Source: Candidatus Hermodarchaeota archaeon (GTDB lineage Archaea > Asgardarchaeota > Heimdallarchaeia > Hodarchaeales > Hodarchaeaceae). From it: a stretch of 32,000 nucleotides of DNA. Shown piece by piece: positions 15,130 through 31,587 of this stretch. The DNA is taken from contig JBHLKY010000018.1 in NCBI GenBank assembly GCA_048886185.1, forward strand, positions 19,151-51,150, read 5' to 3'. The notes under the pieces were generated by a model. That model was given only the letters and a program-made list of their open reading frames with translations, was not told where the DNA came from and made no database searches. The position numbers were made by a program, and so were the translations under genes. Every line of letters begins with the position of its first letter. Position 1 is the first letter of the stretch.

Positions 15130-17520
15130 TTAGCCTATGATTCGGCTAACGGTCTCTTCGGAGATTTTTGTACCAAACAGGGAACGAAGTGAAAGGTAAG
15201 CAGCTAGAATAATACCGAGAAAAACATTTACGACTGATAACCCAATATTGATTGGAGTGATTCCCATAATAAATACAACTCCAAATTCTGCTGCCCATTG
15301 AAAGATGAAACTTGTCAACGCACTACCAGTAAAAAATCCAATGAAAATACCACCAATGCTAATTACGACCAGCTCTAGTAGTACTGTTTCAAAAATTTCA
15401 CGATTTGAAACTCCTAATGCACGGAAATTCACGAAATCGTATTTTCGCTCTGAAATTGAAATAGAAACAACGGAAACAGCTATAGATAATCCTACAATTA
15501 GACCTGCAGACATTGCTGCTAGCATGAAAGCATAACCAACTGTCATTCCTTCTCGCACAGAATTTGCTAGTTCACTTTTTATGAGAACTTCTTGAACATT
15601 AGGATTCTTGCTCAGTTTTTCATCAATTTGGGCTGAATTTGTCGTATGAATGTATATACCATTAGCATAATCTGTTTCAGATATCCCAGCGAGCCATCGA
15701 GCAGTTTCTATTGATGTATATAACCCAGCACCCGTGAATTCATTAAGTATGTTTTCAACCTTTAATTGCCTATAATTTCCTTTAACATCAATTATTGATA
15801 GGTTTTCACCTATGGTAAGACCAAACTTAATTACTAAGTCTTTCGTAATCACGACATTTTGGTACCTTGGAACACCTCCAGTGTCGAAATTCCGACTCCG
15901 TGTTGTCAATTCAAGCCCAGTGATAACATAGTTTTGAGTCATATCTTGTTTTAATCTTATAGGTATTAAAATAAAAGGTTCATAATGGAACCATGGTAGA
16001 TCTTCAAGCATCATTTCAATCTGTGTTGAGTTTTGATAGTTGTTGAGGGTAATCTGCACATCCCACGCTTGATAGAATTTAAATTGTTTATCAATACCTG
16101 ATGTAAAACTGGTTCCAGCGATTGAACCAAAGCAAGATATGGACATTGCTAGAATAATCCCAAAGATTATGAACAACACTTTTCGTTTATCTTGAAAGAC
16201 TGATCGAATTGAAAATTTTGTCAGTGGCGAGAGGGATTTAACTTTTAATAAGATTTTTTCTAAAAAGACAGGACGAGTTGGTTTGAACGCTGCTTGAGGT
16301 CGCATTGCTTCGATTGGTGCCATTCTTATAATTCTTCGACTGGCTAGGAGAGAACCTGTTGATGTAGAAAAGAATATTAGACAAATAAATCCAAAAGTGG
16401 GGATTAATAAGAGTATAGAAGAAATATGGGTCACATTGGGTAATTTTTTTATGCCTGCTAGTTCAATATAGAAATCTCCGAGGCCTAAACTTAAGATTAA
16501 GCCTATTAATATTCCGATAGAACCCCCTATCAGACCAATTAGCCATGAATAGATAATAGCACTTGTAATAATTTCACGATTTGTAAACCCCAAGGCCTTA
16601 AAAATACCAAAAGTAGTGATTTCCTCCTCAACAATCCGCTTTAGGACAATAAATAACATAATTCCAGCAATTAGTGCAAAAACAAAAGATAAAATAAGAG
16701 TCATTCCTGAAAAAGTAGGTGCAATACTTAATAGGAAAGCATCTCGCCCACTGTACTGAAGTACTGAATCAATACCATACTTTTGACTTATTACAGCTAG
16801 AAATTCTTCCAAAAAACGATTTCTCATTGAAGGTTTGTTAAAATAAATAGCAATTTGATTAGCTTGGTTTGTACTGTTGCAATGAGATTCCCATACTTGA
16901 TCTTTCATCCAGATCACAGGGCCATCCCAAGAGCTCCCATAAAATTCGGTAACAATCCCAGGTGATAACATAAATTCTGGCGAATCAACAAAAGCTATGA
17001 CTGTTAAATTCAAGATCCCAGAAGGAGTGAATACTTGTAATTCGTCATTTATTTCCCAGCCCTGGAGCTCAGCAGTTAGCTTCTCAACAACGGCCACATT
17101 AAAGCCAGTTGATTCATGGAGAGTATCTTCGTAACCATCATGATAATATAATTTATCAACGAGTAATTCTTCATCTCTAACTGCATATAAATGAGTAGTT
17201 ACTTGTGATTCTGCCCCAGACTCAGCTACTTGTAATTCATGGAAATCTCGAATTTCAAACTTTAAATCGATGGTTAAGTTCTCTTTGACTTGATTTACCA
17301 ATATTGTCAAATCAGATTTATCCATTTGTTTTGTTGTTATTAAAAGGTGGTGATATCTATAGTCGATCCAAGATGAATTCTCAACTTCAAGCCAATTAAA
17401 GTACAGTGATGAGTACATAATAGTTATTATACCCCCAATTGTAATCACTATTATTATTGGTATCGACCTGAGTTTCTTATTTTTCACATCCCTCCAAGCT
17501 TTGCGAAAGAATAATCTCAT
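15130..17520 (-). CDS. ABC transporter permease, FtsX/MacB family, two repeats
   Basis: Two FtsX-like domains (FGIFKALGF; FVNFRALGV). Start refined to ATG 17520 (MRLFFRKAWRD), preceded by GGTGA; the ORF-track extension to 17658 overlaps the ATPase gene. Confidence 0.85.
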   Translation of the reverse strand: MRLFFRKAWRDVKNKKLRSIPIIIVITIGGIITIMYSSLYFNWLEVENSSWIDYRYHHLLITTKQMDKSDLTILVNQVKENLTIDLKFEIRDFHELQVAESGAESQVTTHLYAVRDEELLVDKLYYHDGYEDTLHESTGFNVAVVEKLTAELQGWEINDELQVFTPSGILNLTVIAFVDSPEFMLSPGIVTEFYGSSWDGPVIWMKDQVWESHCNSTNQANQIAIYFNKPSMRNRFLEEFLAVISQKYGIDSVLQYSGRDAFLLSIAPTFSGMTLILSFVFALIAGIMLFIVLKRIVEEEITTFGIFKALGFTNREIITSAIIYSWLIGLIGGSIGILIGLILSLGLGDFYIELAGIKKLPNVTHISSILLLIPTFGFICLIFFSTSTGSLLASRRIIRMAPIEAMRPQAAFKPTRPVFLEKILLKVKSLSPLTKFSIRSVFQDKRKVLFIIFGIILAMSISCFGSIAGTSFTSGIDKQFKFYQAWDVQITLNNYQNSTQIEMMLEDLPWFHYEPFILIPIRLKQDMTQNYVITGLELTTRSRNFDTGGVPRYQNVVITKDLVIKFGLTIGENLSIIDVKGNYRQLKVENILNEFTGAGLYTSIETARWLAGISETDYANGIYIHTTNSAQIDEKLSKNPNVQEVLIKSELANSVREGMTVGYAFMLAAMSAGLIVGLSIAVSVVSISISERKYDFVNFRALGVSNREIFETVLLELVVISIGGIFIGFFTGSALTSFIFQWAAEFGVVFIMGITPINIGLSVVNVFLGIILAAYLSLRSLFGTKISEETVSRIIG

Positions 17521-17536
17521 ATCATCACCGAGTAAG

Positions 17537-18289
17537 CTATGTTGTATCAATAGGAGGAGCCTCTGTGAGTTCCTCCCAGAACTCTTTTTCTTTAGCTGGA
17601 TCATATTGTGAGGTACCAAAGACCTTTCCATCTCGAAGGTAAACAACTCTATCCGCAAGGGTAGAGATCCCTACATTGTGAGTCACAATGATTACTGTTA
17701 CTTTATGACTCTCATTGATTCGTTGTAGTAATTTCAATATTTTACCTGTCGTTTCACTATCTATGTTTCCTGTTGGCTCATCAGCTAATAGTATCTTTGG
17801 ATTTTTTGCTAATGCCCTTGCAATGGCTACTCGCTGTTGTTCCCCACCACTAAGCTGAGCAGGAAATTTGTTGACTTTATCTCCAAGACCTACTTCATCT
17901 AGTAAATCTTTAGTAATCTCTCGGGCCTCGGTTGACGGATTGGTGAGTTTTGCTGCTAGTTCCACGTTCTCAAATGCTGTAAGAGAGGCAACGAGGTTGT
18001 AGAACTGAAAAATGAATCCCACGTTAAGTCGTCTATATTGTGTTAATTTTTTTTCTTTGAGAGAAGCCAGATTGATTTTTTCTCCATTTTTGGTAAAAAA
18101 AATCTTTCCTGCTGTTGGCCGATCAATCCCTCCTATTAGGTTTAGAAGAGTTGTTTTTCCTGAACCTGAAGGGCCTAAAATAGCAATAAACTGCCCTTGC
18201 TCTATATCAAGAGTAATACCGCTCAAAGCAGGAACGATCAATTCACCCATTTTATAGTCTTTAGTCAAATCCTCTATCCATAAAGACAT
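17537..18289 (-). CDS. ABC transporter ATP-binding protein (LolD/MacB-like)
   Basis: Walker [17 protein letters not shown] signature, [13 protein letters not shown]. Start refined to ATG 18289 with GGTGA RBS. Confidence 0.9.
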
Positions 18290-18435
18290 TTTTTTCACCA
18301 AATCAGATGAGATAGCCAATAGGTTTAAGATACTCAGGTAAAACAAATATGTTTACCTTTGGTTTTTAATATTAAAACACGAAAAAAAATCGTGTAGAAT
18401 GGTATACAGATGGGTTATTTCATGTTAGGTGATTC

Positions 18436-19911
18436 CTATAGCTCTTTTGAAAATTGATGAAAGAGTTTAGCCACAAATAGTTCGAATTCTTTAATACCTC
18501 CAACGTTGGGGTTATTAGATTTAATAACTGCATATTCAAGAGGTGAATGAGCACGTCCACCATGACCTAGCCCGCCATAAACAAATGGAAGTTTGAGAAT
18601 CGAATGGAACAATGAAAAAGGAGCTGATCCAGCCAATAGAGGATAAAAAACAGGCCTTTTATTGAATTTCTCATAGATTTTTGCAGTCATTTGAATTAAA
18701 GGATGAGATGGAGACATTTTAGCAGGCCCATAGCCTGCTCCTAATTCTAACTCCACCATAGGGAATTTCTCCTTAACATATGTCTGATAACATTTTTTGA
18801 CATAATCTACCTCTTGAAATGGAGGTAAACGAATATCTAAATTAGCGTGAGCTTCATGGGGAATTATCGTCATACTCCCTTTTCCATAATACCCACTTTC
18901 GATACCATTTATCGATAATCCTGGTTTAAACACTTGCTCGATAATGGCTTCTTCCCCTACTAATTCAATACCATTTTTATCTCTGAATTTTGATACGCTT
19001 ATTGACTCTTTCATGGTGTCAAATTTTAATTCTTCGAGAAGTGTTTTTATGACTTCTTTGTCTTCCTCAGATGGGCCAACAATATTTGGATCATCCATGA
19101 TTCCTGGTACAAGAATCTCATTAGTATTATCATTTTTCAACGCTTGTAATACCTCAATAAGTTTGAAAACTGGGCTTTGTACCAATCCAGAAAAAGAGGA
19201 ATGCAAATTATGACCGATAGGACCTCCCCACTCACCTCCACGGCAGGACATTTTTGCTTCAATTACTCCTCTTACTCCTAAAAAGAACTTTATAGAACCA
19301 TCATGACTTTCAAAAAACATTGGAAAGAAGAGAGCAGTGCTTTTCATCAATTTATCTTGATATTCGTTAATGAAAGGTCTTAAATGGGGAGATCCAAGCT
19401 CTTCTTCCCCTTCTAACGCGAAAATGATGTTTATTGGTAATTCACCGTCTTCTTGTAAGAATGTTTCTAAAACATTGAAAGTTGCTAATGTAGGCCCTTT
19501 TTGATTTTGGACTCCACGGTTCAATAAACATTTTCCTGAAAACCCTGGAAACCATTCAAATTCATGAACCTCTGCTCCAAAAGGATCGACTTTTTTCCCA
19601 TTTAATACCCATTTCTCTGGATAAACTGGTTGGACATCATACATACTGTAAAATAAGAGTGTAGGCTTGTGTTTATCCATCCATATTTCACCATAGATTT
19701 GGGGATGGCCAAATTCATTTCCCATGGTTTCAGCTAGATGAATATTCTCACCACCCAAATTTTTGATCTTTCTCATCAGTATTTCCGTTGTTTCACGAAT
19801 TCCTTCACCTGTTGCTGATACTGAAGGTTGTTTAAGAAATTTCTGAATTTTTGGAAGGTCTTTGTTCATGAATTCATTTTCAATTCGATCTAGAACATCT
19901 TTTAAAGTCAT
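18436..19911 (-). CDS. M20/M25/M40-family metallopeptidase (ArgE/DapE-like)
   Basis: YSMYDVQP, NRGVQNQKG, EGEEELGSP, AHSPLEY. Likely start ATG 19911 (MTLKDVLDRIE) rather than 20025. Confidence 0.85.
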   Translation of the reverse strand: MTLKDVLDRIENEFMNKDLPKIQKFLKQPSVSATGEGIRETTEILMRKIKNLGGENIHLAETMGNEFGHPQIYGEIWMDKHKPTLLFYSMYDVQPVYPEKWVLNGKKVDPFGAEVHEFEWFPGFSGKCLLNRGVQNQKGPTLATFNVLETFLQEDGELPINIIFALEGEEELGSPHLRPFINEYQDKLMKSTALFFPMFFESHDGSIKFFLGVRGVIEAKMSCRGGEWGGPIGHNLHSSFSGLVQSPVFKLIEVLQALKNDNTNEILVPGIMDDPNIVGPSEEDKEVIKTLLEELKFDTMKESISVSKFRDKNGIELVGEEAIIEQVFKPGLSINGIESGYYGKGSMTIIPHEAHANLDIRLPPFQEVDYVKKCYQTYVKEKFPMVELELGAGYGPAKMSPSHPLIQMTAKIYEKFNKRPVFYPLLAGSAPFSLFHSILKLPFVYGGLGHGGRAHSPLEYAVIKSNNPNVGGIKEFELFVAKLFHQFSKEL

Positions 19912-20232
19912 GATAATCACTATTTTGGTTTCATCATTTTTTCTCAAGGAATAAGGAATCAATAGGCCATTCAGGCCAATCTTATCTTTGGTAAACACAT
20001 TTGAATTTATTATTCTTATCCTCATGTTTTTTGGAGTACTTATTGTCTTTCTATTGTTCTATCTATATATTACTTTTCTTCTAGCATAAAATTCCTACTT
20101 TAGGTGAGTATAACTTATCCCAATACAATCAAATTTACTCATTAAAAATATTAAAAGTTTAATGGCCATACCTCAAAAGGAACTGTTTTTTACCATATTA
20201 TAAACGCCTTATTTCATTGGTAGGTATTAATA

Positions 20233-21093
20233 ATGATTATTAAAAGTTTAGAAACTATCAGTTTAAGTGAGATCACTAAGACTTTTAACGAGGCCTTTGC
20301 AGATTATGTAATACAATTCACTGCAACAGAAGAATACCTACAAACGAGATGGAAAGGAGCAGGAGTAGATTATAAACTATCCTATGGGGGATTTGAGAAT
20401 GATACCCTCGTAGGTTTCATTATTCATGGAATTGACAATTGGAATGGTTTGAAAACGGCTTTCAATGTAGGAACAGGGGTAATACCTGAGTACAGAGGAA
20501 AAAGAATGGTCAAAAATATTTATGACTATGCAATACCAAAGCTAAAGAAACACGGAATACAGCAGTGTCTTCTAGAAGTCATTCAAGAAAATGAAAGAGC
20601 AATAAGAGCTTATCACAGGATAGGATTTAAAGAGGGGAGGGAATTAATAAGTCTCACTTATACTTCTGAGGCAAATCAAGTTGAACATGGAGTGAATACA
20701 CAGATTCAGTTTGAAATTGAAGAGAATATAAGACACGTAAACTGGGACATTATACAAACTTTTTGGGATTTTTACCCATCTTGGGAGAATTCAATTTCAG
20801 CTTTAATACGAAGTGCTGAAATATATCATTATCTAGGAATGCTAAAGGACAAGAGGTTAATCGGTTACGTTATTTTTAATCCAAAAACTGGTTATATACC
20901 TCAATTTGGGGTTGCAAAAGGGGAAAGGGGAAAAGATTATGCCAGAAATTTATTCAATAAACTAGCTACCCTTAATAATCGATTCTCCATTATCAATGTA
21001 GAGAAGCAGGCGAACCAAACACTGAAGTTTCTCACCACTTATGGGTTTAAAAAATTCATTAGTCAGTATGAAATGAAAAAAATTCTAGAATAA
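20233..21093 (+). CDS. Tandem GNAT-family N-acetyltransferase
   Basis: GTGVIPEYRGKRMV motif A, NERAIRAYHRIGF motif B, degenerate second GNAT half. Confidence 0.8.
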   Translation: MIIKSLETISLSEITKTFNEAFADYVIQFTATEEYLQTRWKGAGVDYKLSYGGFENDTLVGFIIHGIDNWNGLKTAFNVGTGVIPEYRGKRMVKNIYDYAIPKLKKHGIQQCLLEVIQENERAIRAYHRIGFKEGRELISLTYTSEANQVEHGVNTQIQFEIEENIRHVNWDIIQTFWDFYPSWENSISALIRSAEIYHYLGMLKDKRLIGYVIFNPKTGYIPQFGVAKGERGKDYARNLFNKLATLNNRFSIINVEKQANQTLKFLTTYGFKKFISQYEMKKILE

Positions 21094-26019: not shown

Positions 26020-26049
26020 CATATTAGCATTTAAATGAGCGCTAATATG
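26020..26049. promoter_or_regulatory. Inverted repeat CATATTAGC-N12-GCTAATATG enclosing a TATA-like box
   Basis: Perfect 9-bp arms (26020-26028, 26041-26049). The spacer contains TTTAAATG at 26030-26037; GGAGG RBS at 26078-26082 precedes TTG 26090. Confidence 0.5.
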
Positions 26050-26089
26050 CCTTTGTGTAATTCTTATTATGCAAATCGGAGGATATGTC

Positions 26090-27013
26090 TTGGAAGACAA
26101 AAGTATTCGACATAAATTTGAACTTGCTCTTGAACATTTCATCGAACGAATCAAACTTGATAAGAATATTCTAGCTATCTTTGTAGCTGGTAGTGTTACT
26201 AATGGTATTGTTTGGGAACACTCGGATATTGACATGTTTATTATTACTAACGAACAAACTGTTCAACAAAATTTTTTAGCCATACAAGAGAATGATATCA
26301 ATATTTTTGCTAGTATTATGACTCGGAACGAATTTCGACAAATTTCTCAGCAGTTTGTACAAGGGAGTTTTTGGCATCACATCCTTTCCACAGGAAAACT
26401 TGTTTATGTGACAGATCAAGGAATTGCTGATTTTAATCGTGATTTGGAATGGGTTGCGGAACGAGATAAAGAAACACAGATTTTAGTTCGTACTGAACAG
26501 CTCATTGTAACTCTTTTTAAAGCCCAGAAAACACTTTTTGTAGAGGAGGACATTGTAAAGTCATTTAACTGGATCATCATGGCATTACAAGAACTAGCCC
26601 GAATTCTCATCCTTCGTGCAGGTCAGATTCCTGGAAGAGATGTCTTATCTCAAGTTAAACATTTAGATGGAATACTAGTAACTGGAGTCATTCAGTCTTT
26701 CAAAGAAGGCTATAATAAAGCAAACCTTGTAGAAGCTATCAATATAATTGAAGAATTTCTTGAGTCAAATAAGAATACATTATTTAAACCACTCTTTGAG
26801 TACTTGGAAGAAGCAGCAGGTGAACGAAGACAATCTGAGATTGATGACTACTTTAAGCGAGCTTTGGGCAATATCCCATTTTTCACGTTAGCAGAATCTG
26901 TTGAATGGTTAAGTCACAAAGGAGATCTTGTCAGAAGCGTATCTCCTAAACGAATTACTGCTAAAAGCCGTGTAACAGTGGATGAGATAACTGTTTATTA
27001 TGTAGGAGGGTAA
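26090..27013 (+). CDS. Pol-beta-superfamily nucleotidyltransferase domain, helical bundle and probable C-terminal winged helix
   Basis: VAGS...SDIDMFII (GS + DxD) motif, helical middle region, and PLFEYLEE...QSEIDDYF...VEWLSHKGDLVRS tail. TTG start chosen from GGAGG spacing (ORF track starts at 26069). Confidence 0.75.
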   Translation: MEDKSIRHKFELALEHFIERIKLDKNILAIFVAGSVTNGIVWEHSDIDMFIITNEQTVQQNFLAIQENDINIFASIMTRNEFRQISQQFVQGSFWHHILSTGKLVYVTDQGIADFNRDLEWVAERDKETQILVRTEQLIVTLFKAQKTLFVEEDIVKSFNWIIMALQELARILILRAGQIPGRDVLSQVKHLDGILVTGVIQSFKEGYNKANLVEAINIIEEFLESNKNTLFKPLFEYLEEAAGERRQSEIDDYFKRALGNIPFFTLAESVEWLSHKGDLVRSVSPKRITAKSRVTVDEITVYYVGG

Positions 27014-27018
27014 GAAAG

Positions 27019-29871
27019 ATGAGAGATAACATAGAAGTAATTGGAGCACGTCAGAATAATCTCAAGAACATCTCTGTCAAGCTTCCACGGAATAAACTAA
27101 CAGTAATTACTGGTGTCAGTGGGAGTGGAAAATCAAGTCTTGCTTTTGATGTGATCTTTGGTGAAGGGCAACGATTATTTCTAGAATCGCTTTCTACATA
27201 TGCTCGCTCACGCGTTGTCCAAGTAAGGCGACCAGATGTTGATTTTGTGTATGGTCTCTCTTCAGTTGTATCTATTGAACAGCACCAAGGAATTCGGAAC
27301 TATAGGTCAACAGTTGGCACTCTTACTGATATAAACACCTATCTTCGCTTGTTGTTTTCAACGATGGGACAAGCTCATTGTCCTTACTGTGAGAGACAAG
27401 TCCCCATTAAATCAATTAATCAAATTCTTGAACATCTCTTATCCCTCCAGAAAGAAACCATGATAGAAATTTTAGCCCCAGTGTTTAAGATTTATGGAGA
27501 AAAATATCGTTATTTATTTGATGAACTTCGGAAAAGAGGACTAGGGAAGATTCGGATTGTTAATAAAGAGTATGATATTGGAGATAAGATTAAACTAGAT
27601 GAAGAAAACGATCATCAAATTTTGGCATTTATTGATAAATTTGAAGTTTCGAGTGATCTTCATCAACGAATCCTTGATTCTCTCCGTGAATGTCAGCGAA
27701 TCGGAGGAGGATTTATTCAGATTAACCTAAGGGATTCAGAATCCAACTCAATATACGATTTCACTTGTCCAGAACACAACATAACGATGGTAAAACCCAA
27801 ACCTTGGTATTTTAGTCCTAATGAAAGTGATAGTGCTTGTCTTACTTGTATGGGGCTAGGAATTTATCGTAAAGCAGTTCCATATTTGGTTGTAGAAAAT
27901 GAAAAGAAAACTATTCGGGAGGGGGCAATAAATTCGAATATCTTTAATGTAAAGCATCCTTTTAAATATTTAGTAATTTTTAGTTTGGCAAAGCATTATA
28001 ACTTCAGCCTAGATAGGCCATTTAATGAACTTCCCGAGGAAATACATAATATTCTTTTTTATGGAACCAAGGGAGAGAAATTTGAACTTCATCAACCTCC
28101 GAAAATGAAACAATCGTTCTCAAATGTTGGTAAGAAGGTAAAATTCGAAGGACTCATACCTCCGATTGATAGATGGTATAAACAACGAGTTCGTCAGCAA
28201 TCCCAACGACAAGCAAAGACTATGGAAGAACACATTTTCTTTCGCGGAATGACAGATATCACATGTCCTGATTGTAATGGTGTAAAATTACTTTCTCAAC
28301 GTCTTTTAGTTCGAATTAAAGGAAAAAATATCCATGAATTAGGAGAATTAACACTTACGGAATTATTAGACTTTCTAGGTGAGATTGAAGTTAATGAAGA
28401 ACGAAAACATATTGATCTTCCTATTGTTGAAGAACTGAAGAAGCGACTTTCTTTGTTGTGTGAAATTGGAGTTGGTTATTTATCTTTGAATCGTGAAGCC
28501 CATACACTTTCAGGTGGAGAAACTCAACGCGTTCGAATGTCAACTCAAATTGGCTCAGGATTGATGGGAATGCTATATATTCTTGATGAACCCTCCATAG
28601 GATTACATCATAGAGACAATTATCGTATTATTAATATGTTAAAGAAATTACGTGATATTGGAAATACAGTTATTGTTGTTGAACATGATACAGAGATGAT
28701 GGAGGCAGCAGACTGGATTTTGGATATGGGGCCAGGATCAGGGGAGAAAGGGGGGTATATTGTTGCTCAGGGAAGTGTTGAGGAAGTAAAAAAGGCAAAA
28801 AAATCCATTACAGGACAATATCTAGCCAGAATTAAAACAATCCCTGCACGGAATTCTCGAAGAGAATCAAATGGTGAATCGATACATATAATTGGTGCTA
28901 GAGAGAATAATTTAAAGAATTTTAGTGTAAAAATTCCTTTGGGAAACTTTGTATGTATTACTGGTGTTTCAGGCTCAGGAAAAAGCAGTTTAATCAATGA
29001 GATCTTAGCTAAAGCTTTATTATCAAGAAAGAATCGAAGAGTGATCCCAGGTAAACATGACTGTATAGAACACCTTGATCTCATCAAGGATATCCGGATA
29101 ATGGATCAATCTCCAATCGGACGTACATCCCGCTCTAATCCCGCTACTTATGTAGGATTTTACAATAAAATCCGTGAAATTTTCTCTGAATTAGCTGAAT
29201 CAAGGGAGAGGGGTTATACAAAAACCACATTTAGTTACAATTCTAAGGATAGTGGCAGATGTGAGGAGTGTGAAGGGACAGGTGAAATTGTCACTGCACT
29301 GCAATTCATGCCTGATGTGAAATCTAAGTGCCCTGTATGTAAAGGAAAGAGATTTAAAAATGAAATATTAGAAATCACCTATAATGGGTTCAATATTGCT
29401 GATGTAATGGAACTATCGGTAGAAGCAGCTCTGAAAGTCTTTAAGGATGTACGCTTAATCCGCTATAAACTTAAAATAATGAATGATTTAGGATTAGGTT
29501 ACTTAAAACTTGGCCAGTCGTCAACAACATTAAGTGGAGGGGAAGCCCAACGTGTTAAGCTTGCAACAGAATTGGGAAAAATAAAACGTCACCAACAAAA
29601 TCTATATATCTTTGATGAACCCTCAATTGGACTGCATCTAGCAGATATTCAAAAATTACTTCACTGCATCGATAAATTGATTGAGGCTGAGAATACTGTT
29701 ATAGTTATTGAACATAATCTCGAAATCATCAAGATGGCAGATTATGTGATTGATCTTGGACCAGAAGGAGGGACTGGAGGTGGTTATCTTGTTGCTGCAG
29801 GAACACCAGAAACTATCGCCCAGAATGATGAGTCAATTACTGGTCACTATCTAAAAACAGTTATTAACTAG
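27019..29871 (+). CDS. uvrA: Divergent UvrA-family ABC ATPase
   Basis: Two Walker A motifs GVSGSGKSSL, two LSGGE signatures, LDEPSIGLH / FDEPSIGLH, zinc modules (CPYC, CPEH, CLTC, CPDC, CEEC, CPVC), GARQNNLKN / GARENNLKN. May be a paralogue rather than the NER uvrA. Confidence 0.85.
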   Translation: MRDNIEVIGARQNNLKNISVKLPRNKLTVITGVSGSGKSSLAFDVIFGEGQRLFLESLSTYARSRVVQVRRPDVDFVYGLSSVVSIEQHQGIRNYRSTVGTLTDINTYLRLLFSTMGQAHCPYCERQVPIKSINQILEHLLSLQKETMIEILAPVFKIYGEKYRYLFDELRKRGLGKIRIVNKEYDIGDKIKLDEENDHQILAFIDKFEVSSDLHQRILDSLRECQRIGGGFIQINLRDSESNSIYDFTCPEHNITMVKPKPWYFSPNESDSACLTCMGLGIYRKAVPYLVVENEKKTIREGAINSNIFNVKHPFKYLVIFSLAKHYNFSLDRPFNELPEEIHNILFYGTKGEKFELHQPPKMKQSFSNVGKKVKFEGLIPPIDRWYKQRVRQQSQRQAKTMEEHIFFRGMTDITCPDCNGVKLLSQRLLVRIKGKNIHELGELTLTELLDFLGEIEVNEERKHIDLPIVEELKKRLSLLCEIGVGYLSLNREAHTLSGGETQRVRMSTQIGSGLMGMLYILDEPSIGLHHRDNYRIINMLKKLRDIGNTVIVVEHDTEMMEAADWILDMGPGSGEKGGYIVAQGSVEEVKKAKKSITGQYLARIKTIPARNSRRESNGESIHIIGARENNLKNFSVKIPLGNFVCITGVSGSGKSSLINEILAKALLSRKNRRVIPGKHDCIEHLDLIKDIRIMDQSPIGRTSRSNPATYVGFYNKIREIFSELAESRERGYTKTTFSYNSKDSGRCEECEGTGEIVTALQFMPDVKSKCPVCKGKRFKNEILEITYNGFNIADVMELSVEAALKVFKDVRLIRYKLKIMNDLGLGYLKLGQSSTTLSGGEAQRVKLATELGKIKRHQQNLYIFDEPSIGLHLADIQKLLHCIDKLIEAENTVIVIEHNLEIIKMADYVIDLGPEGGTGGGYLVAAGTPETIAQNDESITGHYLKTVIN

Positions 29872-29888
29872 TTAGTGAGAATATACCA

Positions 29889-30821
29889 TTGACAATGGAA
29901 CAATTAGAGCATATTCAATTAACGAAAAACATAGTTACAACCTCAATGAATCCTCGAGAAGTTCAAAAGCTATTAAGGAGTTATGAAACTCAGACTATGA
30001 GCTGTCTTATCTTAGAAGATGAACTCTTTTTTGTAGATACGCTTGCTCGAATTGATTTAACAAAACAATTTCGTCAGGATATGGAAAAGCGATTTAAAAA
30101 GCCAACAACTCATTTATTACTCACACACGATCATTGGCACTGTGCATTTGGAATGAGTGTCTTTGAAGACGTTACTGTTGCGATATCCAGTGCAGGTAAG
30201 TCCTATTATAGAAAGAATTTAAAATACGGAGTTTATGAGAAGTTTAAAAATAGAATAATACGTAATATTCCTGATGATGACAAATTACGAGAACTTTTAC
30301 TAGAAGCACCTCTTTTTGTTCCTCATGTTGGTATTAGTAACATCAGATATTTTGGACAAAATGATGAAGTTTTTTTCAAGGTTATAGGTATGCATACACG
30401 CCCCTCCTCGATGATCTATGTGAAACCAGATAAGACATTGTTCACAGGGGGAGCTCTAAATACTGTTTATGGACAATCCATCTGGCCACTACAAGCAATC
30501 GAGCTCTATCGGGAATGGGAAAAAATGGAAATAGATTACGTTGTTCCTGGACACGGTTTTGTCACTGATAAGCAGTATATTACTATCATTAGAAAATATT
30601 TTGAGGAGCTCGTTGCCAAACTTCGTGAATTGAGAAATCAGGGTCTTACAAAGACTCAAGTCTTGAAACATAATGATTTACCTGAATATCCTGGAAAAAA
30701 ACAAAAGAGTTGGATTGAAGGGAGTGATTTTCACACAAAAGTTGTGAATAATCTGATTAAATGGTGGTATGGACAGATTTTAAAAGAACAATCCGATAAT
30801 GATCTCCTATTCATAAGTTGA
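29889..30821 (+). CDS. Metallo-beta-lactamase-fold protein with atypical metal motif
   Basis: FVDT, THDHWHC in place of HxHxDH, MHT, FTGG in place of FTGD, VPGHG. Start TTG 29889 or ATG 29895. Confidence 0.75.
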   Translation: MTMEQLEHIQLTKNIVTTSMNPREVQKLLRSYETQTMSCLILEDELFFVDTLARIDLTKQFRQDMEKRFKKPTTHLLLTHDHWHCAFGMSVFEDVTVAISSAGKSYYRKNLKYGVYEKFKNRIIRNIPDDDKLRELLLEAPLFVPHVGISNIRYFGQNDEVFFKVIGMHTRPSSMIYVKPDKTLFTGGALNTVYGQSIWPLQAIELYREWEKMEIDYVVPGHGFVTDKQYITIIRKYFEELVAKLRELRNQGLTKTQVLKHNDLPEYPGKKQKSWIEGSDFHTKVVNNLIKWWYGQILKEQSDNDLLFIS

Positions 30822-30981: not shown

Positions 30982-31587
30982 TTGATTGTACTTAAGGTCG
31001 TATTAATTGGCGATGGTGGGGTTGGAAAGACTGCGATTCGTGAACGCTATTTAGGGAAAGGATTTGAGTCCCAATACGTTTTAACTATTGGCGCAGACTT
31101 TGCCACAAGGGATGATGTCGTATATGGAAGCCGTGTACGATATCAAATTTGGGATTTGGCAGGGCAGGAACGCTTCGATGGCGTTAGGGGAGTTTATTAT
31201 AGAGGAGCACTCGGTGCACTACTTGTGTTTGATGTTACGAGGCCTGATTCGTACTTTAATGTTCCTAAATGGGTTAAAGAGCTTTGGTCTCATAATGGGA
31301 GGAGTAAAGTGCCAGTTGTTATTGTGGCAAACAAGATAGACCTTCGTGAGTCTGAAAAAGAGACAATAAGTTCTGAACAAGGCAGATTATTTGCTGAAAA
31401 ACTCACCAAGATAACTTCTCGCGAAGGATTTGCATGCAATTATATTGAAACATCAGCCAAGACTGGGGCTAAAATCTCAGATGCATTCTCATTGCTTGGG
31501 GAAAATATCATGAAATATGCAGAAAAGCGAGAAAATATTCGTCAAAACACAGCTCGTCCCGTCGAACATATGATAACCGAACAGTAA
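30982..31587 (+). CDS. Rab-like small GTPase (Ras superfamily)
   Basis: G1 GDGGVGKT, G2 TIGADF, G3 WDLAGQE, YYRGA, G4 NKID, G5 ETSAK; no C-terminal Cys. Confidence 0.9.
   Translation: MIVLKVVLIGDGGVGKTAIRERYLGKGFESQYVLTIGADFATRDDVVYGSRVRYQIWDLAGQERFDGVRGVYYRGALGALLVFDVTRPDSYFNVPKWVKELWSHNGRSKVPVVIVANKIDLRESEKETISSEQGRLFAEKLTKITSREGFACNYIETSAKTGAKISDAFSLLGENIMKYAEKRENIRQNTARPVEHMITEQ

Follow-up and report, generated by a model that had tools for sequence, protein, structure and literature searches.

We analysed a window of 32,000 nucleotides (nt) from the genome of a Candidatus Hermodarchaeota archaeon (GCA_048886185.1, contig JBHLKY010000018.1, positions 19,151 to 51,150 of the forward strand), in which a gene for a KNTase/YgxA-like nucleotidyltransferase (NTase) is followed by genes for an NTase-linked UvrA paralogue and for a protein of the metallo-beta-lactamase (MBL) fold. 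All three are read on the forward strand: the NTase gene at 26090..27013 (307 amino acids, aa, from TTG 26090), the UvrA gene at 27019..29871 (950 aa) and the MBL gene at 29889..30821 (310 aa, with an alternative ATG start at 29895). The intergenic gaps measure 5 nt (27014-27018) and 17 nt (29872-29888), and the GGAGG ribosome-binding site of the UvrA gene (27003..27007, forward strand) falls within the final codons of the NTase gene, with 11 nt separating it from the UvrA ATG. The NTase frame is open upstream to ATG 26069, giving a 314-aa frame whose numbering is used for NTase residues throughout; the N-termini of homologues (M-x-EDK) and a public gene call beginning at residue 8 favour a start at 26090, and a second GGAGG (26078-26082) is located ahead of this TTG. 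A previous interpretation made from the letters of the window alone (hereafter the sequence-only reading) had described three co-oriented genes with gaps of these sizes and a ribosome-binding site for UvrA in the end of the upstream gene, and the open reading frames agree with it on each point. Its domain assignments (Polbeta NTase, UvrA, MBL fold) are borne out by Pfam, NCBIfam and fold searches, and the window indeed contains neither uvrB nor uvrC, both of which sit on contig C16 of the same genome.

The feature that recurs outside the source genome is the association of the first two genes. Almost every NTase homologue examined adjoins a UvrA of the same lineage, at ~45 loci from four Asgard families and the Bacillota. 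When 400 Asgard genomes were searched with a profile, 40 of them, from families f1, f3, f4 and f31, proved to carry the NTase, and UvrA was adjacent at 22 of 22 NTase loci (19 from those genomes and three from contigs of metagenome-assembled genomes, MAGs). Locus layout was compared in 60 Asgard relatives. In genus g1, the NTase stands beside this type of UvrA in all ten genomes that carry it; all genus-g1 genomes with the NTase have NTase, UvrA and MBL side by side (G008, G010, G011, G014, G017, G018, G021 and G019), the three genes of G006 being distributed over two contigs. Relative to the window, the proteins of this genus are ~52% (NTase), ~73% (UvrA) and ~42% (MBL) identical, and the distribution is patchy even at this level, with the NTase in 11 of the 22 genomes of the genus. 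The other Asgard families present two layouts, namely NTase then UvrA, often with overlaps of 1-4 nt, or UvrA then a tandem NTase-NTase fusion, and the same pairing is found on MAG contigs labelled Hermod-, Thor- and Odinarchaeota. Outside the Asgard archaea, the closest relatives of the UvrA (50-54% identity) belong to Abyssisolibacter, Vallitalea, Oceanirhabdus, many Paenibacillus and a Thermotogota MAG. In six Paenibacillus genomes the UvrA is preceded by a full-length NTase homologue (30% identity, E 1e-46). A locus search with a single Paenibacillus NTase protein returned Paenibacillus only; an even sample of 401 Bacillota genomes contained the NTase in eight, beside this UvrA type in seven of the eight. 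The neighbourhood analysis proposed along with the sequence-only reading thus finds an NTase-UvrA adjacency that is conserved far beyond the source genome, in Asgard archaea and in Bacillota. The trio that had been presented as a unit does not persist as such, the conserved core being the pair: the MBL gene is linked to it in one Hodarchaeales lineage and one Hermodarchaeota-labelled MAG. Since MBL is absent from all the NTase-UvrA loci examined in f3, f4, f31 and the Bacillota, gene content identifies it as a lineage-specific add-on that is not essential to the module. As judged from gene order, the conserved unit is an accessory NTase-UvrA pair, which has probably spread horizontally.

The UvrA of the window is an extra copy, since canonical uvrA, uvrB and uvrC are all encoded elsewhere in the source genome: canonical uvrA on contig C1 (1366 bits), and a single uvrB and a single uvrC close together on C16. 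A canonical UvrA was also seen in at least eight of the Asgard relatives carrying the module, and 8 of 8 Bacillota genomes tested combine a canonical UvrA (~1500 bits) with the linked copy (~930-1150 bits). In a UvrA tree of 69 rows (IQ-TREE, LG+G4, careful search, UFBoot/SH-aLRT supports), all NTase-linked UvrAs are placed on one side of a branch supported at 100/100, the opposite side comprising canonical bacterial and canonical-type Asgard UvrAs, the halves of fused UvrAs and the class-II-like outgroup; within the former, the Asgard NTase-linked UvrAs form one group (99/97). This phylogeny answers the question of whether the window protein groups with canonical UvrA as the only copy of its genome, which would have undermined the sequence-only reading: it does neither, as it falls in a separate clade (100/100) and its genome has another copy that scores 1366 bits, and it was not recovered as the genome's sensor of nucleotide excision repair (NER). 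In a quick tree rooted on class-II-like sequences, the placement of the bacterial members beneath the Asgard group was weakly supported (87-88). A transfer of the module from bacteria to Asgard archaea is plausible on this basis, and a single transfer between bacteria and archaea is suggested.

Further UvrA-type genes were observed in these genomes. The source genome holds a 1642-aa double UvrA-like gene (C21:54462-59345), and sister families (genomes G024, G028, G031, G038 and others) have head-to-tail UvrA-UvrA fusions of ~1920-1980 aa, the N and C halves of which form separate clades in the tree. Class-II-like UvrA paralogues of ~760-810 aa, devoid of the UvrB-binding region, occur in relatives (G010:C1:4643065-4645128, G014:C164:7776-9842 and G033:C44:61964-64009), so that, by homology, some Hodarchaeales genomes hold four or five UvrA-type genes. 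A Rosetta-stone fusion of NTase and UvrA was sought and rejected: long UvrA homologues owe their additional 360-690 aa to further ATP-binding cassette (ABC)/UvrA modules and not to an NTase. Among the Bacillota, one very divergent member (L119, G642:C45:10000-18858; UvrA branch length 1.1) has an NTase cut to 210 aa plus a 105-aa piece, with a Phd-antitoxin/Uma2-nuclease fusion gene alongside, and perhaps represents a module in decay.

The architecture of the UvrA paralogue is that of class I UvrA, with equal length and the same domain order. It comprises two ABC modules (Walker A at 32 and 649, LSGGE at 497 and 838, DEPS at 523 and 866), three zinc modules (C121/C124..C250/H253, C274/C277..C416/C419 and C748/C751..C771/C774), a UvrB-binding-type domain at 132-237 (PF17760, E 2e-19) and an insertion DNA-binding domain at 289-396 (PF17755). 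The protein scores 1067 bits against the TIGR00630 UvrA model, for a cut-off of 729.8, and shares 41-45% identity with canonical UvrAs. The PDB entries that it matches best are canonical, 9gxk (Ct-UvrA, 951 bits) and 2r6f (G. stearothermophilus, 850 bits), and the class II structures 2vf7 (551 bits) and 7sh1 (Ecm16, 436 bits) score lower and align only from residue 265/379 on. The qualification "divergent", given by the sequence-only reading, is appropriate for the separate clade and the level of identity, but not for a protein that passes TIGR00630 with full class I architecture. What distinguishes the NTase-linked proteins from class I UvrA is their separate clade, their status as extra copies, the linkage to NTase, the replacement of UvrB-domain invariants and a first zinc module of the CCCH type, which ends in His across the whole clade. 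The UvrB-binding-type domain has a mean identity of 45% within the clade and 45% within canonical UvrAs, but 28% between the two groups, and keeps 9 of 22 canonical-conserved columns in the clade, the lowest of any domain. Canonical K159, G160, H198 and R216 (E. coli numbering; invariance was judged on 14 canonical UvrA sequences) are replaced across the clade by G/D, E, Y and mostly Q, respectively, and L143, E161, R171 and H253 are new clade-specific invariants. These changes fit an altered or additional binding partner.

Class IIa UvrA-like proteins have neither the first zinc finger nor a UvrB-binding domain, and their proposed role is the ATP-driven recognition of drug-DNA complexes, in protection against DNA-binding compounds; Ecm16 works without UvrB/C/D and needs its own ATPase (PMC9328131). 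The NTase-linked UvrA resembles DrrC (daunorubicin), Ecm16 (echinomycin) and D. radiodurans UvrA2 in being an additional UvrA paralogue and not the housekeeping NER sensor, and protection against DNA-binding compounds is a proposed role that it has in common with class IIa. In contrast to the latter, it possesses the first zinc module as well as the UvrB-binding domain, and its sequence similarity to class IIa is much lower; in addition, no NTase partner has been described for class II, and the loci here are outside biosynthetic gene clusters. The presence of both elements does not allow the DrrC/Ecm16-like assignment of the sequence-only reading to be retained, and independence from UvrB is not supported for a protein with a UvrB-binding domain and class I architecture.

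The partner of this UvrA consists of a pol-beta NTase domain (PF18765), a YgxA-like helical substrate domain (PF22339, 28.4 bits for a cut-off of 27) and a C-terminal winged-helix-like tail (~250-314) that is conserved among homologues. The active-site motif reads GS (41-42)...SDID (52-55). The AlphaFold model (confidence, pLDDT, of 87) has as its best Foldseek match 3c18, a YgxA-like protein (E 1.7e-14, TM 0.65/0.69, 306 columns), followed by ANT(4')/kanamycin nucleotidyltransferase (TM 0.68-0.70), then ANT(4')-IIb and LinB (entries 6nmk, 1kny, 4ebj and 3jyy). The fold of NTase plus helical domain and the conserved G41, S42, D53 and D55 are therefore those of antibiotic nucleotidyltransferases of the ANT type. 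The GS...DxD motif is invariant in single-copy NTases, together with several Lys/Arg/Asp residues, among them K151, K154 and R190 of the helical domain. With a pI of ~5-6 the protein is acidic, and its tail, whose net charge lies between -5 and +4, lacks a basic character. The likeness to ANT(4')/KNTase and 3c18 thus covers the two-domain fold, GS...DxD, the acidic character and, probably, a dimeric state. The differences from ANT enzymes are scores far below the NCBIfam cut-offs, an extra winged-helix-like tail that is common to 3c18-type proteins, and the consistent linkage to UvrA, which has not been reported for ANT. An antitoxin of the HEPN-MNT type was not found, the MntA model giving 20.9 bits for a cut-off of 60 and the locus having no HEPN gene. 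Sister loci contain tandem NTase-NTase fusions of 630-700 aa and adjacent NTase pairs; one half of the fusions retains SDID and the other reads SNIN, and SDIG replaces SDID in the better half of one family-f4 lineage. Tandem fusions and pairs fit a KNTase-like dimer that would have evolved into a pseudo-heterodimer. Related YgxA-like clusters carry HTH_52.

Co-folding was used to evaluate contact between the two proteins. UvrA 1-612 with the NTase gave an interface score (ipSAE) of 0.52, the best of three controls reaching 0.00, and in three runs at least 78% of the contacts were common, with a partner pLDDT of at least 79. By the calibration of the tool this amounts to weak support: 58 of 80 solved complexes passed the mark, as did 2 of 110 mismatched pairs, and those that passed at an ipSAE of 0.60 or less were only seven of the 80 solved complexes plus both mismatches; these counts hold only roughly here, as our own alignments were used for the co-fold. 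In view of the strict and often translationally coupled adjacency of the genes, a physical NTase-UvrA complex is likely.

The gene context of sister loci is informative with regard to function. The most recurrent third gene, present in 12 sister loci, encodes a regulator whose small-molecule-binding domain is of the GyrI-like/Cass2 kind. This domain is joined to an ArsR-type helix-turn-helix (HTH) in nine Asgard loci (L037-39, L054-58 and L069), where the gene is directly upstream and co-oriented; in three Bacillota loci it is joined to an AraC-type HTH, and the gene is divergently oriented. Such an arrangement is typical of ligand-induced detoxification operons under GyrI-like drug-sensing regulators of the BmrR/Rob/SbmC type, from which the present case differs in that the window locus has no such regulator and in that the HTH is of the ArsR type in Asgard archaea and of the AraC type in Bacillota. 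The occurrence of two HTH types on one ligand-binding domain, next to one and the same pair in both archaea and bacteria, suggests induction by a drug-like ligand. The other neighbours in sister loci are a major facilitator superfamily (MFS) transporter, MacB-type ABC pumps and GNAT acetyltransferases, and an alpha/beta hydrolase is found between UvrA and the tandem NTase.

We propose that the pair confers inducible protection against a small molecule that binds or damages DNA, a reading to which we assign a rough probability of 45%. It takes up the intercalator or adduct resistance of the sequence-only reading, which is the part of it best backed by gene context, but not the trio, the class II UvrA or the hydrolase on which it had been built. 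A drug-like compound would induce the operon, and the ATPase and zinc modules of the UvrA paralogue would locate DNA distorted by the bound or covalently attached compound. The re-modelled UvrB-binding-type domain, or another surface, would hold an NTase dimer, and the NTase would neutralise the compound or the adduct by nucleotidylylation, as ANT enzymes treat antibiotics. In lineages with a dead NTase active site, the NTase may merely bind the compound, and the MBL of the Hodarchaeales lineage would probably be an added accessory component that binds or hydrolyses. It can be further speculated, with little confidence, that the NTase-linked UvrA represents a third functional class of UvrA, which would load an NTase dimer on distorted DNA instead of UvrB or before it, the bound compound or adduct being nucleotidylylated in place, in a pathway for processing damage or drugs that would be common to Bacillota, probably other bacteria, and several Asgard lineages.

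The UvrA paralogues known so far are either the NER sensor or class II proteins without the UvrB domain that protect antibiotic producers. No published description of the NTase-UvrA pair was found in a literature search of incomplete coverage, which leaves its absence unproven. A full-length UvrA lineage associated with an enzyme similar to antibiotic NTases would couple the sensing of DNA distortion to chemistry in a new way, and the pairing stands under drug-sensor regulators and is common to bacteria and Asgard archaea. It has a bearing on the choice of partners by UvrA-type sensors, on self-protection and resistance against DNA-binding natural products, and on bacterial gene flow into the archaeal lineage nearest eukaryotes. 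The module is invisible in current annotation, because annotation pipelines label the NTase-linked UvrA "excinuclease ABC subunit UvrA".

A number of observations weigh against protection from a small molecule. The substrate and the phenotype of the pair are deduced from context, and the window's own locus has neither a GyrI-like regulator nor an efflux pump in the operon. At the sequence level, the NCBIfam ANT models are far under their cut-offs, with ANT_9 at 20.8 bits versus 340 and ANT(3'')-Ic at 17 bits versus 545, and membership of the curated ANT sequences was not found. The loss of DxD in tandem halves (NxN; DIG) indicates that catalysis may not be universally required, and we know of no nucleotidylylation of a DNA-binding drug. 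With regard to UvrA, the window protein is atypical of its clade, as it keeps R217, the equivalent of R216, but has Arg at the position of canonical E222; R216 and E222, both invariant in canonical UvrAs, are residues that we take to be UvrB contacts, a literature search having given no confirmation. The retained UvrB-binding-type domain may also leave cooperation with UvrB possible, and the co-fold passes in the weak range. Finally, motif 2 of the window MBL is HDHWHC (80-85) and not HxHxDH, with the motif-4 Asp changed to Gly (TGGAL, 186), and the SKSWD.. MBLs of G008, G010, G011 and G017 also lose the motif-3 His and, in three of the four, the motif-5 His.

Cooperation with UvrB leads to the alternative of a specialised branch of NER, in which the paralogue would pass lesions to the single UvrB and UvrC of the genome, and the NTase would be an accessory factor that might, for example, mark, process or gap-fill a particular class of lesion, or regulate UvrA by AMPylation. 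The full class I architecture (PF17760, PF17755 and three zinc modules), the passing of the TIGR00630 cut-off and the canonical nature of the best PDB matches (9gxk, 951 bits) are consistent with such a role, as are uvrB and uvrC in the source genome and the R217 of the window protein. Signature domain II, which constitutes a second UvrB interface (PMC12796330), keeps 69% of the canonical-conserved columns. On the other hand, a canonical UvrA is likewise present in the carrier genomes checked and the module is patchy within a genus; the canonical invariants of the UvrB-binding domain are replaced clade-wide; the neighbourhood consists of drug-sensor regulators and genes for efflux or modification, and not of repair genes; and the acidic NTase with its non-basic tail is unlike DNA-acting NTases. 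We consider this branch of repair unlikely, while regarding it as the most serious competitor of small-molecule protection.

A less probable alternative is that the NTase is mainly a non-catalytic adaptor or regulator, which would bind a ligand, or an operator via its winged-helix tail, and so control the UvrA paralogue, and that UvrA alone displaces the compound, as proposed for Ecm16, which needs its own ATPase only (PMC9328131). The loss of DxD in one half of the tandem NTases (NxN), and in one lineage in both halves, goes in this direction, as do the conservation of the C-terminal winged-helix-like domain and the presence of HTH_52 in related YgxA-like clusters. An operator would also be provided by a perfect 9-nt inverted repeat, CATATTAGC-N12-GCTAATATG, at 26020..26049, which surrounds a TATA-like TTTAAAT (26030-26036); it is a candidate promoter/operator and corresponds to the candidate operator of the sequence-only reading. 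The repeat exists, but 230 of 2000 shuffles of the intergenic region (11.5%) yield one, a frequency not beyond chance, and it is not conserved among relatives; it was consequently dropped as an operator. Moreover, no single-copy NTase departs from GS...DxD or from the Lys/Arg of the helical domain, the charge of the tail is close to neutral (net -5 to +4), and many loci include a separate, dedicated regulator.

The weakest alternative, anti-phage or anti-plasmid defence, in which UvrA would sense foreign or modified DNA and the NTase would make a nucleotide signal, as do Hailong HalB and CD-NTases, or modify the invader DNA, with MBL or alpha/beta-hydrolase effectors, appears very improbable: the accessory, patchy distribution, a UvrA tree that fits a single bacteria-archaea transfer, the presence of HalB among the fold matches of the NTase (TM 0.40-0.47 by Foldseek) and weak PADLOC PDC-M05A matches of the NTase (E 1e-5) would agree with it, but no effector is conserved, the MBL being lineage-specific and often without metal ligands, the NTase fold is far closer to ANT-type enzymes than to HalB, and the recurrent neighbours are GyrI-like drug sensors and not defence genes. 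The PADLOC mad3/mad8 match of UvrA was discarded as evidence, as mad3 is generic and canonical UvrAs (E. coli and the C1 copy of the source genome) score higher, with 342 bits versus 293 for the window UvrA; PADLOC gave no match for MBL and no specific defence-protein match. The antiviral defence suggested by the sequence-only reading has nothing specific in its favour, its PADLOC match being common to all UvrAs.

The third gene of the window encodes a protein whose model (pLDDT 91) displays the alpha-beta/beta-alpha fold with a C-terminal helical extension. Its best Foldseek matches range from E 5e-15 to 1e-11 and include 8d2z (E 5e-15), B1 lactamases (TM 0.72-0.78), the alkylsulfatase Pisa1 and the chlorothalonil dehalogenase Chd (6uxu, TMq 0.74). 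The 50 best matches are all small-molecule hydrolases except one mitoribosome chain, with no beta-CASP/RNase Z nuclease among them. The protein has no Pfam match (no PF00753), and its NCBIfam B1 MBL matches are weak. The likeness to small-molecule MBL hydrolases (B1 beta-lactamases, Chd, Pisa1 and 8d2z) thus consists of the MBL fold and the C-terminal helical extension, the differences being the absence of a PF00753 match, of HxHxDH and of the motif-4 Asp. The window MBL retains the motif-3 His (MHT, 168) and the motif-5 His (PGHG, 220). UvrA-linked MBLs and a stand-alone paralogue on contig C28 form one clade (SH-aLRT 94), in which motif 2 takes the forms HSHWDH (canonical, in the Hermodarchaeota-labelled MAG), HDHWH[CS] (window and nearest relatives), SEDWHR and SKSWD.. 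(for example SKSWDV); sister orthologues of the last two forms also lack later His residues. The window MBL is probably not a standard dinuclear zinc hydrolase, and from its motifs a hydrolytic activity is doubtful, as is the "hydrolase" of the sequence-only reading, HxHxDH being altered in the window and destroyed in sister genomes.

Additional MBL copies were observed in the source genome. Two adjacent MBL paralogues are located on C28 (C28:43968-46286, L046:3968-6293), one with a canonical HYHGDH and one with SKSWDL, the latter grouping with the UvrA-linked MBLs of sister genomes; the idea that this is a decayed second copy of the operon was rejected, as there is no UvrA or NTase remnant alongside. 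At C2:70251-71063, an MBL homologue 38-40% identical to the window MBL is in two pieces, with an in-frame TAG and TAA, and is likely a pseudogene. Similar broken MBL copies occur in G010 and G008.

The surroundings of the operon in the window, which comprise GNAT, a DinB_2 protein, DUF3795, an FtsX/ABC pump and an alpha/beta hydrolase, are loosely similar to the contexts of sister loci. Upstream are a MacB-like FtsX permease with an ABC ATPase (15130-18346) and a double-GNAT protein (20233-21093); in G041 and G010, too, the pair has homologues of this ABC ATPase and of the M20 peptidase (18436-20025) nearby. GNAT was rejected as a conserved partner, the window GNAT not being orthologous to those of L052 and L053, two proteins that share 76% identity; a GNAT next to the pair recurs at the superfamily level only. 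The gene that follows MBL directly on its downstream side (30982-31587) encodes a small GTPase of the Ras family (PF00071, E 6e-45), in keeping with the Hodarchaeales-like Asgard origin to which the names of homologues point. Ras/Arf GTPase genes are also close to the pair on contigs labelled Thor- and Odinarchaeota, a proximity that probably reflects the mere abundance of such genes in Asgard genomes. On the Hermodarchaeota-labelled MAG, ~2-4 kb downstream of the trio (L051:14752-16954), there are genes for a luciferase-like monooxygenase and a protein with a non-ribosomal peptide synthetase (NRPS) condensation domain, which, as a single case, may hint at a natural-product context. In one genome of family f31, a GNAT fused to an Ssb-like OB fold is encoded immediately downstream of the NTase-linked UvrA (L058:3626-4417).

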